Shown here piece after piece: positions 1,583 through 38,853 of a stretch of DNA of 38,853 nucleotides. Numbering within the stretch: position 1 is the first letter of the stretch; every line of letters starts with the position of its first letter. Source of the stretch: a virus; UHGV virus genome UHGV-0046264. One strand, written 5' to 3'. The notes beneath the pieces were generated by a model. That model saw only the letters and a program-made list of their open reading frames with translations. It was not told the DNA's origin and did no database searches. A program made the position numbers and the translations under genes.

Positions 1583-1792
1583 TTAATTTGAATATAATGC
1601 AATTCTCGAGGACTGAAGTTTCTCGCAATTAAAATTTATCAGTTTTACTTTCTGCTCTCTGGAAACGCCTGCTTCTTTTTTACCTGAGAGCATTTTTTCG
1701 CATTCTGATTTCGTTAGTTTAGATTTTGAATATCTTGTCCAGTTAGTAGGAGTGCCACCTTCCTTTTCAATAGTGGCGGTAATTTTATACAT
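1583..1792 (-). CDS. ydaC: YdaC-like small protein (DUF1187), 69 aa
   Basis: ORF starting MYKITATIEKEG; its ATG overlaps the ralR stop (ATGTATAA); position matches Rac gene order. Confidence 0.6.
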   Translation of the reverse strand: MYKITATIEKEGGTPTNWTRYSKSKLTKSECEKMLSGKKEAGVSREQKVKLINFNCEKLQSSRIALYSN

Positions 1793-6722: not shown

Positions 6723-7211
6723 ATGTTGGATGTATTTACTCCATTGTTGAAACTTTTTGCTAACGAGCCACTCGAAAGACTTATGTATACGATTATCATT
6801 TTTGGTCTCACTCTCTGGCTGATACCGAAAGAGTTTGCTGTCGCATTCAATGCTTATACTGAAATACCCTGGCTCTTTCAGATTATCGTTTTTGCCTTTT
6901 CTTTCGTGGTCGCTATTTCCTTCTCAAGATTGCGAGCACATATTCAAAAGCATTATTCATTGCTACCAGAGCAACGAGTATTGCTTCGTTTATCTGAGAA
7001 AGAAATCGCTGTATTTAAAGATTTCCTTAAAACAGGAAATCTTATTATCACTTCTCCTTGCCGTAACCCGGTTATGAAAAAATTAGAACGGAAGGGCATC
7101 ATTCAACATCAGAGTGATAGCGCAAACTGTTCTTATTATCTCGTCACCGAAAAATACTCCCACTTTATGAAGTTATTCTGGAACAGCAGGAGCAGGCGTT
7201 TTAATCGTTAG
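6723..7211 (+). CDS. sieB: Superinfection exclusion protein B (SieB), membrane protein, 162 aa
   Basis: MLDVFTPLLKLFANEPLERLMYTIIIFGLTLWLIPKEF with hydrophobic helices; start at Met42 of the six-frame ORF. Confidence 0.8.
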   Translation: MLDVFTPLLKLFANEPLERLMYTIIIFGLTLWLIPKEFAVAFNAYTEIPWLFQIIVFAFSFVVAISFSRLRAHIQKHYSLLPEQRVLLRLSEKEIAVFKDFLKTGNLIITSPCRNPVMKKLERKGIIQHQSDSANCSYYLVTEKYSHFMKLFWNSRSRRFNR

Positions 7212-7363
7212 CTTACTGTGTGCTTCTCCAACCATCGTCGTGCGCCAGCTTCGGTTTTAAACGTTTTGCTTTTGGTATACGTCATGGCAGTGAACGTTCC
7301 ATCCTGGTTGGGGAACACGCCGCACACCAGGGATTCGTTATTGCCGAGGTCGATTTTTTGCAT
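7208..7363 (-). CDS. ydaF: YdaF-like small protein, 51 aa
   Basis: Hand-translated: MQKIDLGNNESLVCGVFPNQDGTFTAMTYTKSKTFKTEAGARRWLEKHTVS; convergent with sieB and overlapping its stop by 4 nt. Confidence 0.6.
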   Translation of the reverse strand: MQKIDLGNNESLVCGVFPNQDGTFTAMTYTKSKTFKTEAGARRWLEKHTVS

Positions 7364-7373
7364 TTTTCGCACC

Positions 7374-7508
7374 TCACATCTTGTTGTTGCGGATAGAGGC
7401 TTCTGCCTGCCAGAGATCCCAGTCGTTGCTGCGTAGAGCCTGTACAGCCTGGCTGTAAGTGATATCGCAACAATCCATCAAATACTGAACTACTTCGTAA
7501 TGCACCAT
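7374..7508 (-). CDS. ydaG: YdaG-like small protein, 44 aa
   Basis: MVHYEVVQYLMDCCDITYSQAVQALRSNDWDLWQAEASIRNNKM from an internal Met. Confidence 0.6.
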   Translation of the reverse strand: MVHYEVVQYLMDCCDITYSQAVQALRSNDWDLWQAEASIRNNKM

Positions 7509-7682
7509 CTTATCTCTCCCCTTAACGCCGGGTGGCGGAACTGAAACCTGCTGCACTGCAAAATCTGAACCCTGCCGTCATGTTCATACGCCTCGGGCTG
7601 GCTACTTAACCCCTGACCACTGCCTGGTAACTCGAAGTATTGCCCTGCGTTCTGTGGGGCGGGGTGGGTTGGTAGGTATATG

Positions 7683-7723
7683 ATGTACTTTGTGTTCATT
7701 GATGTAAAGTACTTTAAGTACAT
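7683..7723. promoter_or_regulatory. Operator-like cluster (OL-like): ATGTACT at 7683-7689, perfect palindrome AAAGTACTTT at 7706-7715, AGTACAT at 7717-7723
   Basis: Repeated and inverted copies of one heptamer upstream of the leftward early genes; the same heptamer recurs in the racR/cro intergenic region. Confidence 0.45.
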
Positions 7724-7798
7724 TTTGTGTGTAAAAAAATGAGATGGGATAAAGTGAAGCACAAACCCGGAGGGGGGAGCTACCGGATTTATGCTGGT

Positions 7799-8218
7799 TT
7801 AAGAGGCTTTTTGTTTTTTCTTTCGTGCTAACTCTTCGTAAATTGCATTGTACTTCTGTTTTTTCTCCTCAAGAGTTTTTAAAAGTTCATCTGTCTCACT
7901 GTCAGGGAGCTCGTCCAGAAGGTCAATGATGATTTTTTGTCTTGGATTTAACTCCTGATAGAAACGTACCTGTCCACTTTCTTCTGTATCCTCTCCCAAA
8001 AGATAGGTTGGTGTTGTTCCAATGAGTGTTGCTAATTCCCTTAATTTCTCTCGGCGAGGAATTGTTTCGCCATTAAACCATTTGCTAACCGCTTTTGGTG
8101 TTAATTTCATTCGACGGGCAATTTCTGCCTGCCTTCCATGTTGTTCATAACCAGCGTTTTCACAGGCTAGCGCAAGCCTACTGGCGAACTCTTTACGCGC
8201 TTTATCTTCATGAACCAT
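7799..8218 (-). CDS. racR: Prophage repressor, HTH XRE/cI-like (RacR-like), 139 aa
   Basis: N-terminal HTH (RQAEIARRMKLTPKAVSKWFNGETIP); divergent from a Cro-like gene; position in the immunity region. Confidence 0.75.
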   Translation of the reverse strand: MVHEDKARKEFASRLALACENAGYEQHGRQAEIARRMKLTPKAVSKWFNGETIPRREKLRELATLIGTTPTYLLGEDTEESGQVRFYQELNPRQKIIIDLLDELPDSETDELLKTLEEKKQKYNAIYEELARKKKQKAS

Positions 8219-8242
8219 AAGTTCAATGATATTCGCTCTTGA

Positions 8243-8273
8243 ATGTACTGTCAGTTCTGTTATAGCATGTACT
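8243..8273. promoter_or_regulatory. Operator-like repeats (OR-like): ATGTACT at 8243-8249 and 8267-8273 in the divergent racR/cro promoter region
   Basis: Two direct copies of the heptamer also found at 7683-7723, plus a TCACA-T-TGTGA palindrome just upstream of the cro-like start. Confidence 0.45.
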
Positions 8274-8297
8274 CAAAGTTCACATTGTGAGGGTGAT

Positions 8298-8552
8298 ATG
8301 AACCAGAAAACACTTGAAGATGTAATCAAAACTGTTCGCGTTTCTGTTGTGGCCGACGTTTGTGGTGTCAGCCAAAGAGCAATCTACAAATGGATGGATA
8401 ACGGAAAATTGCCTCGCACAGAATATACCGGCGAAACAAATTACGCTGAAAAAATCGCTCATGCATCAAACGGATTATTTTCTGCCGATGTAATTTTAAC
8501 TATTGGCAGAAATAAAACTACTACGAAAAAGCTGATGGGAGTTGATTCATGA
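8298..8552 (+). CDS. ydaS: Cro-like HTH DNA-binding protein (YdaS position), 84 aa
   Basis: HTH-like segment (VSVVADVCGVSQRAIYKWMDNGKLP); GAGGGTG ribosome binding site before the internal ATG; divergent from racR; ATGA overlap with ydaT. Symbol assigned from position, not sequence recall. Confidence 0.55.
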   Translation: MNQKTLEDVIKTVRVSVVADVCGVSQRAIYKWMDNGKLPRTEYTGETNYAEKIAHASNGLFSADVILTIGRNKTTTKKLMGVDS

Positions 8553-8971
8553 AAATCAAGCATGAGCACATCGAGTCAGTGTTGTTAGCCCTGGCAGCCG
8601 AAAAAGGGCAGGCATGGGTAGCCAATGCCATTACTGAAGAATATCTGCGCCAGGGGGGCGGCGAATTGCCCCTGGTACCAGGCAAGGACTGGAATAATCA
8701 GCAGAACATCTATCACCGTTGGTTAAAAGGTGAAACGGAAGCGCAAAGGGAAAAAATTCAGAAACTGATCCCTGCAATTCTGGCAATCCTTCCGCGCGAG
8801 CTGCGTCACCGACTCTGCATCTTCGATACCCTGGAACGCCGTGCATTACTGGCGGCGCAGGAAGCGTTAAGTACGGCAATTGATGCGCATGATGATGCAG
8901 TCCAGGCCGTTTACCGGAAAGCGCATTTCAGCGGCGGCGGGTCTTCCGACGATTCTGTCATTGTTCATTAA
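8549..8971 (+). CDS. ydaT: YdaT-like protein (reported Rac toxin partner of YdaS; CII-like position), 140 aa
   Basis: MKIKHEHIESVLLALAAEKGQAWVANAITEEYLRQGGGELPL...; matches my recollection of Rac YdaT; coupled to the upstream Cro-like gene. Confidence 0.75.
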   Translation: MKIKHEHIESVLLALAAEKGQAWVANAITEEYLRQGGGELPLVPGKDWNNQQNIYHRWLKGETEAQREKIQKLIPAILAILPRELRHRLCIFDTLERRALLAAQEALSTAIDAHDDAVQAVYRKAHFSGGGSSDDSVIVH

Positions 8972-12571: not shown

Positions 12572-13766
<1,195 letters not shown>

Positions 13767-13801: not shown

Positions 13802-14575
13802 TTAGAACTGTTCATTGCCATCGAGGTTAGGTAGCATAATTTTTTCAATCAAGGCGAGAGCCTTTTTGTCCCGGTCAGCGAAGTATTTCGGGGCATATTG
13901 CGGCAACCAAATATTGTTAAAATGTTCTTTGAAATCTGCTAAATATTCATTTGGGTACAGCCTTGCAGGGTATACGCGACCATCGGGATATTCATGGTCA
14001 TAGGTAGGGAATGTTTTGGGTTCTACGTTTCTATTATCTCTTAACCATTGTGAAAATACTCTTCCTTGTGAAATGTCAGGAACCATTTTTTCTGGGAGTG
14101 TGTACCCTGCTTGTTCAAGAGGTGCAACCAAGTTGAATGTCAGTTCATTAAGAATAGAAAAGTGCGTGTGAGGAATTCTACTACGATTAACCATGTACCG
14201 TTTTAAATGTACAGGCATTTCTGCTGTAGTTCTTTCCCCTGACATCCATTCACGAACCCATCTTGAAACCTGGACTGCAAATTTGGGCGATAGCCACTGC
14301 GCTAGATTAATAGCGATGTCAGGATGCACCCATGTCCCTTGGTTTTCAGGTCTTCCACCTTTAAATGATTGAATTAACTCCGATATGGGAATTCCCATAT
14401 CGCGTGATAATTCGTCAAAAAACTCTTGAGTAGTTTTGAGTCTAGTGTAATCAGAGAGCAGTTTGCCCGCAGTTCTACACATTGATGTGGCGTTTATGTA
14501 ACCATCTTTGGCACGTAAATGTATTATTTCGCCGTCAATTTCACGAGAAATCAAAGATAATTGAAAGGATGTCAT
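13802..14575 (-). CDS. KilA-N domain protein with uncharacterised C-terminal domain, 257 aa
   Basis: N-terminal ~110 aa fit the KilA-N pattern (YINATSMCRTAGK...GTWVHPDIAINLAQWLSPKFAVQVSRWV); C-terminal ~150 aa not recognised. Confidence 0.75.
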   Translation of the reverse strand: MTSFQLSLISREIDGEIIHLRAKDGYINATSMCRTAGKLLSDYTRLKTTQEFFDELSRDMGIPISELIQSFKGGRPENQGTWVHPDIAINLAQWLSPKFAVQVSRWVREWMSGERTTAEMPVHLKRYMVNRSRIPHTHFSILNELTFNLVAPLEQAGYTLPEKMVPDISQGRVFSQWLRDNRNVEPKTFPTYDHEYPDGRVYPARLYPNEYLADFKEHFNNIWLPQYAPKYFADRDKKALALIEKIMLPNLDGNEQF

Positions 14576-15097
14576 TGAAAATTCCTCAAGTTGGAGAGTT
14601 CTGGAACATTAAGGCGAGGTGGCAGTAATGCACCATCTGTAATCTTTTGATACTGACGTAATCGGACCTGATGTGCAACGCCTTGCAAGTATGTAACTCA
14701 TTGAAAACGATCATTTTTATCTATTGACATCAAATGGCAAACTGTCATTGTGCGGCTATGGCAAGTGGCAAATGCTTATAAATCATATGGATATAAATAG
14801 TACAGAAAGAGTTGTTTTCTCTAGGATATGAGTATACGCCCAATGCTGATTGGTTGAATTTTGTTCTTGTTTTAAAGGGTAAGAGTTTAAAGTGTTGGCA
14901 GTGATGTATTGGATAGTTAGAATTGCTGTGGGTGCTTGAGGCTATCTGCCTCGGGCATGAACACCAAAGGCAGATAGAGAAAAGCCCCAGTTAACATTAC
15001 GCGTCCTGCAAGACGCTTAACATTAATCTGAGGCCATATCTATGCGACACATAGAGATTAGCCTCTTACGGACCGAAAGGTCAAGGAGAAGCAGGCT

Positions 15098-15223
15098 ATG
15101 AAGCAGCAAAAGGCGATGTTAATCGCCCTGATCGTCATCTGTTTAACCGTCATAGTGACGGCACTGGTAACGAGGAAAGACCTCTGCGAGGTACGAATCC
15201 GAACTGGCAGACGGAGGCTCTGA
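15098..15223 (+). CDS. Hok/Gef-family type I toxin homologue, 41 aa as encoded (C-terminus shorter and divergent)
   Basis: MKQQKAMLIALIVICLTVIVTALVTRKDLCEVRIRTG matches the Hok/Gef/RelF transmembrane core, then RRRL-stop; AAGGAG ribosome binding site 9 nt upstream; structured leader with a 10-bp stem at 14933-14968. Confidence 0.7.
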   Translation: MKQQKAMLIALIVICLTVIVTALVTRKDLCEVRIRTGRRRL

Positions 15224-18164: not shown

Positions 18165-18734
18165 ATGAGAGAACTACCTAAAGATTATTTTTTAGGAGTA
18201 GATGATGAGCTCGTCGATTATCTTGAAAAACAAGGGGAAGAGACGATACGAGAGATTCATCTTTCTAACAAAACCAATGTTGAGAATGGATACAAACTTC
18301 TGAACATTCAGATTGTTGGAATTGGTTCATCTTTTTTATTGCTGACACAGAAAACTAATTTCGATTTTCTCACCGCCGGAATTACCACATTTACATTACT
18401 ATGGACATGGTGCGCCATTTACTTGGTATGTACTGGTTTATCTGTGAAGGTTAGGGGCCTGATCAATGCCCCTCCTGATCATATATATCATGAAAAATAT
18501 AAGGATATGGAGCCCTCGAGCTTTAAAATATTCGCTGATGCAGGATATTTAGGACCTGATAAGTTATTGCCGCTTATACGAAGGTATCGCCTTGTTGACT
18601 TGAGTGATACAGCAAGAGAGTTACTGTTGGAAAATGAGAAAATCCGCACGAGTCTCGATAAAGCAAGGATGTATACCATCCTTGCTCCGGTAGCGGCGAT
18701 GTTTATCTCGGCTGTTTTTTTATATGTTCAATGA
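18165..18734 (+). CDS. Hypothetical multi-pass membrane protein in an AT-rich moron between Q/tR' and the lysis genes, 189 aa
   Basis: GGAGGTGAG ribosome binding site; soluble N-terminus (~55 aa), two central hydrophobic helices and a C-terminal hydrophobic helix; AT-rich composition unlike flanking phage genes. Confidence 0.6.
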   Translation: MRELPKDYFLGVDDELVDYLEKQGEETIREIHLSNKTNVENGYKLLNIQIVGIGSSFLLLTQKTNFDFLTAGITTFTLLWTWCAIYLVCTGLSVKVRGLINAPPDHIYHEKYKDMEPSSFKIFADAGYLGPDKLLPLIRRYRLVDLSDTARELLLENEKIRTSLDKARMYTILAPVAAMFISAVFLYVQ

Positions 18735-38298: not shown

Positions 38299-38853
38299 TG
38301 CAGGACATACAACAGGAAACGCTGAATGAATGCATTCGTGCGGAGCAGTCGGCCAGCGTGGTGCTCTGGGAAATCGACCTGACCGAGGTAGGCAGGGATC
38401 GCTACTTTTTCTGTAATGAGCAGAACGAAAAAGGTGANNNNNNNNNNTTTTCTGTAATGAGCAGAACGAAAAAGGTGAGTCTGTCACCTGGCAGAGTCGG
38501 CAGTATCAGGCCTATCCCATTCAGGGGAGTGGATTTGAGATGAACGGCAAGGGCAGTGCTGCCCGTCCGACACTGGCGGTCTCTAACCTGCACGGCATGA
38601 TCACCGGGATGGCGGAAGATCTGCAGAGTCTGGTCGGCGGAACGGTGGTCCGGCGTAAGGTTTACGCCCGCTTTCTGGATGCGGTGAACTTCGTCAACGG
38701 AAACAGCGATGCCGATCCGGAGCAGGAGGTGATCAGCCGCTGGCGCATCGAGCAGTGCAGCGAACTGAGCGCGGTCAGTGCCTCTTTTGTACTGTCCACG
38801 CCGACTGAAACGGATGGCGCTGTTTTTCCGGGACGTATCATGCTGGCCAACAC
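38298..38853 (+). CDS. Minor tail protein, lambda L homologue (partial; runs off the window; interrupted in silico by an N-gap with duplicated flanks)
   Basis: [32 protein letters not shown]...; after the gap the downstream frame reads ...GMITGMAEDLQSLVGGTVVRRKVYARFLDAVNFVNGNSDADPEQEVISRWRIEQCSELSAVSASFVLSTPTETDGAVFPGRIMLAN, as I recall lambda L. Confidence 0.8.
38438..38447. other. Assembly gap (N10) flanked by a 31-nt direct duplication
   Basis: TTTTCTGTAATGAGCAGAACGAAAAAGGTGA occurs on both sides of the N run (38407-38437 and 38448-38478). Confidence 0.9.

Follow-up and report, generated by a model that had tools for sequence, protein, structure and literature searches.

The operators of phage 933W are experimentally defined, rotationally symmetric sites of 15 bp, in which G-(A/T)-A-C at positions 2–5 is critical, T is preferred at position 3, and T or C at position 6; their symmetry was tested by mutagenesis (PMC3317979). 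Three of these sites form OR and two form OL (PMC3317979; annotation GenBank AF125520). In 933W CI, K42 and K46 were modelled as base contacts, K46 was also mutated, and adjacent sites are reportedly bound non-cooperatively (PMC3317979). The immunity region of phage HK022 comprises CI, Cro, OR1–3, and OL1–3, according to Carlson & Little 1993 as cited in PMC8053113. Its CI cooperates between adjacent dimers and loops OL and OR together (looping: PMC8053113). The operator positions of HK022 used in this article were taken from the GenBank annotation of HK75 (HM173637) and from the HK022 sequence.

RacR–YdaS–YdaT of the K-12 prophage Rac and PaaR2–YdaS–YdaT of CP-933P occupy the same position in a Rac-like genome as the switch described here (PMC9638921, PMC8630535). 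The RacR operators have the experimentally mapped form (T/A)TAGGC-n3-GCCTA(T/A) (PMC9638921), and those of PaaR2 are 18-bp repeats of the GTTTAGTAA type (PMC8630535). Short non-cleavable repressors, such as GfoR/GtgR of Gifsy and DicA of Qin, are inactivated by antirepressors (PMC3121763, PMC10448788).

The sequence analyzed herein is UHGV-0046264, a viral DNA of 38,853 nt (38.9 kb), which is called the window at its full length. It very probably carries the immunity switch of a Rac-like, lambdoid E. coli prophage, with a cassette of the HK022/933W type, in which dimers of a 139-aa repressor would bind five 15-bp dyads. The cassette is an uncharacterized system of a well-known type and reveals no new mechanism; no paper describing these operators was found in the literature searched, the coverage of which was limited. 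The 139-aa HTH repressor on the minus strand is divergent from an 84-aa HTH ORF, after which comes ydaT (8549–8971). Both flanks are Rac-like, with sieB, DUF1391, and a ydaG-like gene on the left and ydaT (98% identical to ydaT of K-12 Rac), ydaU, and ydaV on the right. The genes around the switch are as follows:

7208–7372, leftward: DUF1391 ORF, located after the YdaG-like ORF
7374–7556, minus strand: first leftward early ORF, YdaG-like, 60 aa
7799–8218, minus strand: immunity repressor, 139 aa, consisting of an HK022/933W-type HTH (residues 1–75), a linker, and a helical C-terminal domain like that of DicA
8298–8552, plus strand: Cro-like gene encoding 84 aa, with identities of 62% (Cro of HK022) and 47% (Cro of 933W); not YdaS

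The order of the YdaG-like and DUF1391 ORFs is the same as that of ydaG–ydaF in Rac.

An earlier note on this DNA had described the heptamer ATGTACT and two palindromes on either side of the repressor gene and had read the heptamers and AAAGTACTTT as OL and OR operators of one RacR-like repressor. All of these elements lie where they had been placed, namely ATGTACT at 7683–7689 (+), 7717–7723 (−), 8243–8249 (+), and 8267–8273 (+), AAAGTACTTT at 7706–7715, and TCACA-T-TGTGA at 8280–8290. Only two other copies of the heptamer occur in the window, at 18428 and 23017. With six copies observed versus 2.9 expected, a number that is reached by six of 100 shuffles, the whole-window count is weak evidence alone; what is remarkable is the placement of ATGTACT and the larger unit to which it belongs. 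In a repeat search, the heptamers turned out to form the left end of a longer repeat, ATGTACTnnnnGTTC, which recurs at a spacing of 24 bp in both regions. Each copy carries a second, inverted half-site, which makes the unit a dyad of 15 bp, TG(T/A)AC-N5-GT(T/A)CA, the general operator form being (T)G(A/T)AC-N5-GT(A/T)C(A).

Perfect matches to the core of this dyad, GWAC-N5-GTWC, number exactly five in the window and all lie in the two short noncoding stretches, versus an expectation of about 2.1 anywhere in the 38.9 kb. In addition, a weight matrix (PWM), trained solely on nine operators of HK022 and 933W, was applied to every position of the window. The five sites take ranks 1–5 with 18.6, 17.9, 17.7, 15.9, and 12.7 bits, followed by the next-best position with 9.0 bits, and the fifth-best score stayed at or below 12.4 in each of 200 shuffles. 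A reading of the motif occurrences as chance could point to the whole-window heptamer count, which is just about twice the expectation. However, five of five exact dyad cores in the window are confined to 111 bp at the flanks of the repressor gene, the independently trained PWM agrees, and the sites are conserved across genera, so that chance is effectively excluded and retains next to no probability. The five operators and the three promoters are as follows:

7680–7708, minus strand: putative PL from a consensus scan, with −35 TTTACA (7708–7703), a 17-nt spacer, and −10 CATCAT (7685–7680)
7684–7698: OL1, TGTACTTTGTGTTCA, exact core match, 12.7 bits in the PWM; colinear with oL1 of HK022 and HK75
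7708–7722: OL2, AGTACTTTAAGTACA, exact core match, 17.7 bits
8211–8225: OR3, TGAACCATAAGTTCA, perfect dyad with exact core match, 18.6 bits
8226–8254, minus strand: putative PRM, with −35 CTGACA (8254–8249) and −10 TATCAT (8231–8226)
8239–8268, plus strand: putative PR, with −35 TTGAAT (8239–8244), an 18-nt spacer, and −10 TAGCAT (8263–8268)
8244–8258: OR2, TGTACTGTCAGTTCT, exact core match, 15.9 bits
8268–8282: OR1, TGTACTCAAAGTTCA, exact core match, 17.9 bits

Hence, OR contains three sites and not the two that had been seen before. The site that had been missed, OR3 (8211–8225), overlaps the start of the repressor gene, is centered on the A of its ATG, and is identical to the 15-mers of OR1 and OR3 of HK022. 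Measured from this A, the centers of the OR sites lie at −57, −33, and 0. The same positions are found in HK022, in HK75 (annotated oR1–3), and at nine loci from E. coli, Salmonella, Klebsiella, Citrobacter, and metagenomes, including two E. coli variants with 88–89% identical repressors, two Salmonella loci (62–65%), one Klebsiella phage, one Citrobacter phage, and two metagenome loci. In 933W, the centers lie at −56, −32, and 0. The OL pair at 24 bp is present in relatives as well. In the E. coli relative L004, none of the 40 core positions is changed with respect to the window, versus 35 changes in about 200 other noncoding positions. As regards the conservation of the motif in related immunity regions, it is the dyad core that is kept, whereas relatives differ in the first A of the heptamer at 8267 and 7723; no substitution falls in GWAC.

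These observations bear on the recognition unit. If ATGTACT itself were this unit, as the earlier note had assumed, repressor monomers could bind it as direct repeats. Three of the sites do form direct 15-nt repeats of the form ATGTACTnnnnGTTC, and such an arrangement resembles the proposal for the ATTAGGC monomer sites of RacR. It is nevertheless very unlikely, in view of the substituted first A. Furthermore, OR3 contains no ATGTACT at all, yet is the top-scoring site, and every site has its second half-site GTWC at a fixed distance, i.e., forms a dyad, as in 933W (PMC3317979). The real unit is thus the 15-bp dyad.

Neither of the two palindromes was retained as an operator element. AAAGTACTTT represents the left half-site of OL2 plus its flank and is not conserved in relatives: HK022 has TTGGTACTTT, and the Salmonella locus L006 has TAGGTACTTT instead. 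For TCACA-T-TGTGA (8280–8290), the overlap with the ribosome binding site of the cro-like gene stands, as the left arm is the end of OR1 and the right arm enters the cro Shine-Dalgarno sequence. The relatives in Salmonella, HK022, and 933W do not have this palindrome, and some close relatives carry TCATA in place of an intact arm; we regard it as probably fortuitous and not as a regulatory element in its own right.

We infer the promoter positions from known promoters and consensus hexamers: PR follows from an alignment with pR as annotated in HK75/HK022 and 933W, and PRM from a consensus scan and an alignment with the annotated pM of 933W. In L004, the −10 of PR retains TAnnnT. OR1 covers the end of the putative PR −10 and the expected transcription start, and OR2 is placed inside the PR spacer, over the predicted PRM −35. 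With its center at −33, OR2 over this −35 does not fit a lambda-style activation of PRM. Because the repressor ATG follows the PRM −10 by 8 nt and is without a Shine-Dalgarno sequence, the repressor transcript is probably leaderless, analogous to lambda cI and PaaR2 (PMC8630535). The OR3 half-site ATGGTWCA (8216–8225) dictates the first three codons of the repressor, meaning that a DNA-binding site constrains the N terminus of the protein. Downstream of cro, no site like OFR of HK022 was found by core-match and PWM scans of the window.

On the left side, OL1 lies between, and overlaps, the −35 and −10 of the putative leftward promoter. OL2, at 24 bp from OL1, abuts the PL −35 and includes AAAGTACTTT as well as the reverse-strand ATGTACT. 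The annotated pL of HK75 (labelled 'similar to HK022') has hexamers and spacing identical to those of the putative PL, and the order oL2–pL–oL1 of HK022 and HK75 is colinear with the OL pair of the window around TTTACA-N17-CATCAT. As to a third site equivalent to oL3 of HK75, the window offers a single poor half-site, TGTAA (7730–7744), which is unsupported. From the predicted PL start to the first leftward ORF extends a leader of about 115 nt (7557–7672), the plus strand of which is G+C-rich (GGGGCGGGGTGGGTTGG). The E. coli relatives L004 and L009 have kept this leader, which is unrelated to the putL region of HK022 and could be a nut-like or antitermination element.

The overlap of PL and PR with operator sites also lends itself to a different reading, according to which the sites serve mainly or only the Cro-like protein, or the similarity of OL and OR merely reflects two related sigma-70 promoters. 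Lambdoid Cro proteins do share their operators with CI. However, the dyad cores are conserved, whereas the promoter hexamers vary among relatives, and OR3 lies on no lytic promoter. In addition, the recognition helix of the repressor is almost identical to that of HK022 CI, the operators of which have the same sequence. This reading is therefore considered very unlikely, and binding by the repressor remains preferred.

The repressor shows 47.5% identity to HK022 CI (residues 4–102; tblastn) and 50.7% to 933W CI (residues 1–73; tblastn). Its recognition helix is TPKAVSKWFNGE, compared with TPKAISKWFNGE in HK022 and SSKGVSKWFNAE in 933W, and the equivalents of K42 and K46 of 933W are both conserved. 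No match to a Peptidase_S24 domain was found in the repressor, which stops at residue 139 with a helical tail. To DicA it is 29% identical over 112 aa including the tail (BLASTP E-value 5e-15), and with 56.8 bits versus a cut-off of 101 it stays below the threshold of the NCBIfam DicA subfamily; it is homologous to DicA, as this alignment indicates, but outside the DicA subfamily. In one E. coli assembly (L009, 2501–2992), the repressor ORF has 163 aa: a 2-bp indel near window position 7859–7860 shifts the frame in the C-terminal helix, and all five operators are intact. This is probably an inactivated or altered copy.

The label RacR-like in the earlier note does not hold. A RacR/YdaS switch as in Rac of E. 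coli K-12 would agree with the Rac-like flanks, i.e., sieB, DUF1391, ydaT with 98% identity to Rac ydaT, ydaU, and ydaV. Yet the match between the repressor and RacR is restricted to a 33-aa HTH stretch, and that between the cro-like protein and YdaS to 18 aa. Moreover, the RacR operator motif TAGGC-n3-GCCTA is absent from the intergenic region (8219–8297), even with two mismatches allowed (motif: PMC9638921). A RacR/YdaS switch is thus extremely unlikely and already refuted at the sequence level. Judged by these alignments, the repressor is not RacR, and its HTH domain and the cro-like gene are homologues of CI and Cro of HK022/933W. What the locus shares with Rac and CP-933P is the layout: a divergent short repressor and Cro analogue followed by YdaT, OL/OR analogues, and a probably leaderless repressor mRNA. 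The sequences of the repressor, Cro analogue, and operators are unrelated.

The likeness to HK022 and HK75 extends over operator half-sites, site centers, OL1–OL2 spacing, and PL hexamers, which are all the same, and the recognition helix is one conservative residue apart from that of HK022. HK022 differs in having an S24 self-cleavage/oligomerization domain where the window repressor has a DicA-like helical tail of 60 aa. The window further lacks a convincing OL3, OFR, put sites, and nun, contains ydaT in place of cII, and has Rac-like flanking genes. With 933W, the locus shares the 15-bp dyads with G-(A/T)-A-C at positions 2–5 and identical half-sites, three OR sites with OR3 over the cI ATG, two OL sites, and K42/K46. 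Differences are the N-terminal domain, which is only about 50% identical, the first residue of the recognition helix (S41 in 933W, P in the window repressor), the preference of 933W for CGTAC-type outer bases, and its self-cleaving S24-type CI. DicA and Gifsy GfoR/GtgR resemble the window repressor in size (135–139 aa) and in combining an HTH with a short helical C-terminal domain (PMC3121763, PMC10448788). In contrast to them, its DNA-binding domain and operators are of the HK022 type and not of the DicA type, and no Rem/GfoA-like antirepressor or LexA box was found in the window. Compared with lambda, the divergent PRM and PR, three OR sites, adjacent sites at 24 bp, and an OL beyond the repressor gene recur. 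The operator sequence is a different one, with sites of 15 bp as opposed to 17 bp, OR2 and OR3 are spaced by 33 bp, the start codon is covered by OR3, OL is made up of two sites and not three, and OL and OR are about 0.55 kb apart.

That one repressor has operators at both OL and OR, the central proposal of the earlier note, has strong support from conservation and from homology to systems that were defined by experiment; binding itself we infer from these. In the proposed switch, repressor dimers on OR1 and OR2, which are 24 bp apart over the start and spacer of PR, would keep the cro-like gene, ydaT, and the replication genes silent. Dimers on OL1 and OL2, likewise 24 bp apart and located over PL, would shut off the leftward early genes. 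Occupation of OR3, over the start of the repressor's own transcript, would lead to negative autoregulation, and the Cro homologue would most likely bind or compete for the same five sites. Because the C-terminal domain differs, the cooperativity of HK022 CI would not be transferable to this repressor.

When viral contigs were searched for the OR pattern of three sites, at least 120 of them matched (L019–L138). Since these loci were selected by that same pattern, the conservation of their cores was excluded as evidence, and the features used were those not selected for: the OL pair, position 15, and the repressor type. Among the matches listed, which were picked by the OR pattern alone, an OL pair exactly 24 bp apart lies downstream in 71 of 106 loci. 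Of the 106 complete repressors located at OR3 among the matches listed, 23–24 belong to the short type, 22 of them being exactly 139 aa long, and 56 contain S24; the remaining ones are longer and have related helices (TPKA[AS]SKW[LM]NGE). All of the distinct N termini listed (45 of 61) start with Met-Val-His/Gln, as their first codons are supplied by the OR3 half-site ATGGTWCA. Distant repressors with TPKAASKWLNGE helices, probably non-enterobacterial, start in the same way. Within the class with a short repressor, 14 variants of OL occur, with most of the differences falling in the central N5 and the intersite gap. In two Salmonella loci (L006, 3053–3720; L007, 3088–3755), a gene pair for a HigB toxin and an HTH antitoxin lies between the short repressor and the OL pair, owing to which OL is about 1.3 kb away from the repressor start. 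The same position is taken by rexAB in lambda and by paaA2–parE2 in CP-933P.

By its size, HTH, and helical C-terminal domain, the window repressor is to be assigned to the short non-cleavable class. As this domain is DicA-like and helical and not S24 self-cleaving, induction would be expected to proceed by an antirepressor or another route and not by RecA-stimulated cleavage. The repressor of Tritos, a prophage of E. coli LF82, is identical to that of the window and is expressed in the lysogen (PMC9928086). In LF82, only Gally and Cyrano were reported to be strongly induced by ciprofloxacin; Tritos was not among the ciprofloxacin-induced prophages, and with trimethoprim its production slightly decreased (PMC9928086). 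This behavior is consistent with the short non-cleavable class. A LexA box was searched for in the window: no exact CTGT-N8-ACAG occurs, and matches with one mismatch are at chance level. A search of the window for homologues of the antirepressor Rem likewise gave none. On the minus strand, a KilA-N domain protein of 257 aa (13802–14575) adjoins a 338-aa ORF (12718–13734), which we take to resemble the IS5 transposase InsH. The KilA-N protein is a possible candidate for an antirepressor that acts on a repressor without a cleavage domain.

Of 5426 complete E. coli genomes, 1056 (about 20%) carry the 681-bp region at ≥95% identity, or 1077 if any match is counted. Carriers include O157:H7, O26:H11 11368, where it lies at the Rac position, and LF82, and it is also found in the phages vB_EcoS-666R9 and Tritos. 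In those E. coli genomes, the region is annotated merely as HTH proteins, with the RefSeq label 'helix-turn-helix domain-containing protein'. Within the Rac-like surroundings, a perfect YdaT box, TTGATT-CATGAA-AATCAA, is located at 8542–8559 over the ydaT start codon (8549) and is its sole exact match in the window. The box agrees with TTGATT-N6-AATCAA, the consensus from CP-933P, and differs at one base from ATGATTCATGAAAATCAA, the box footprinted in Rac (PMC11879457, PMC9986795). Two RNAs exceed the Rfam gathering threshold, namely the antitoxin sRNA RalA of the RalR/RalA type I toxin–antitoxin system of Rac at 1608–1786 (+) and the antitoxin RNA sok of hok/sok at 14930–15100 (+). A run of 10 N, masked or unresolved, lies near the right end of the window (38438–38447).

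With this analysis, operators and promoters are assigned at the level of single bases for a cassette that is carried by about one-fifth of complete E. coli genomes. The cassette represents an immunity module of the HK022 type that was swapped into Rac-like and Qin-like prophages, and the label RacR is corrected. The recognition helix of the short type is identical or nearly identical to that of the S24-type repressors. It is tentatively proposed, at somewhat less than even probability, that short DicA-like repressors and SOS-cleavable S24 repressors (HK022, Klebsiella, and Citrobacter phages) serve one and the same HK022-type operator set, meaning that the induction module is exchanged while immunity specificity stays unchanged. 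Predictions are cross-immunity with phages of the HK022 family and an induction route other than SOS. If the proposal is true, prophages with the short version, which are present in about 20% of complete E. coli genomes, would confer an SOS-resistant cross-immunity to phages of the HK022 family, and a co-resident CI or Cro of the HK022 type could cross-regulate the switch of these prophages.
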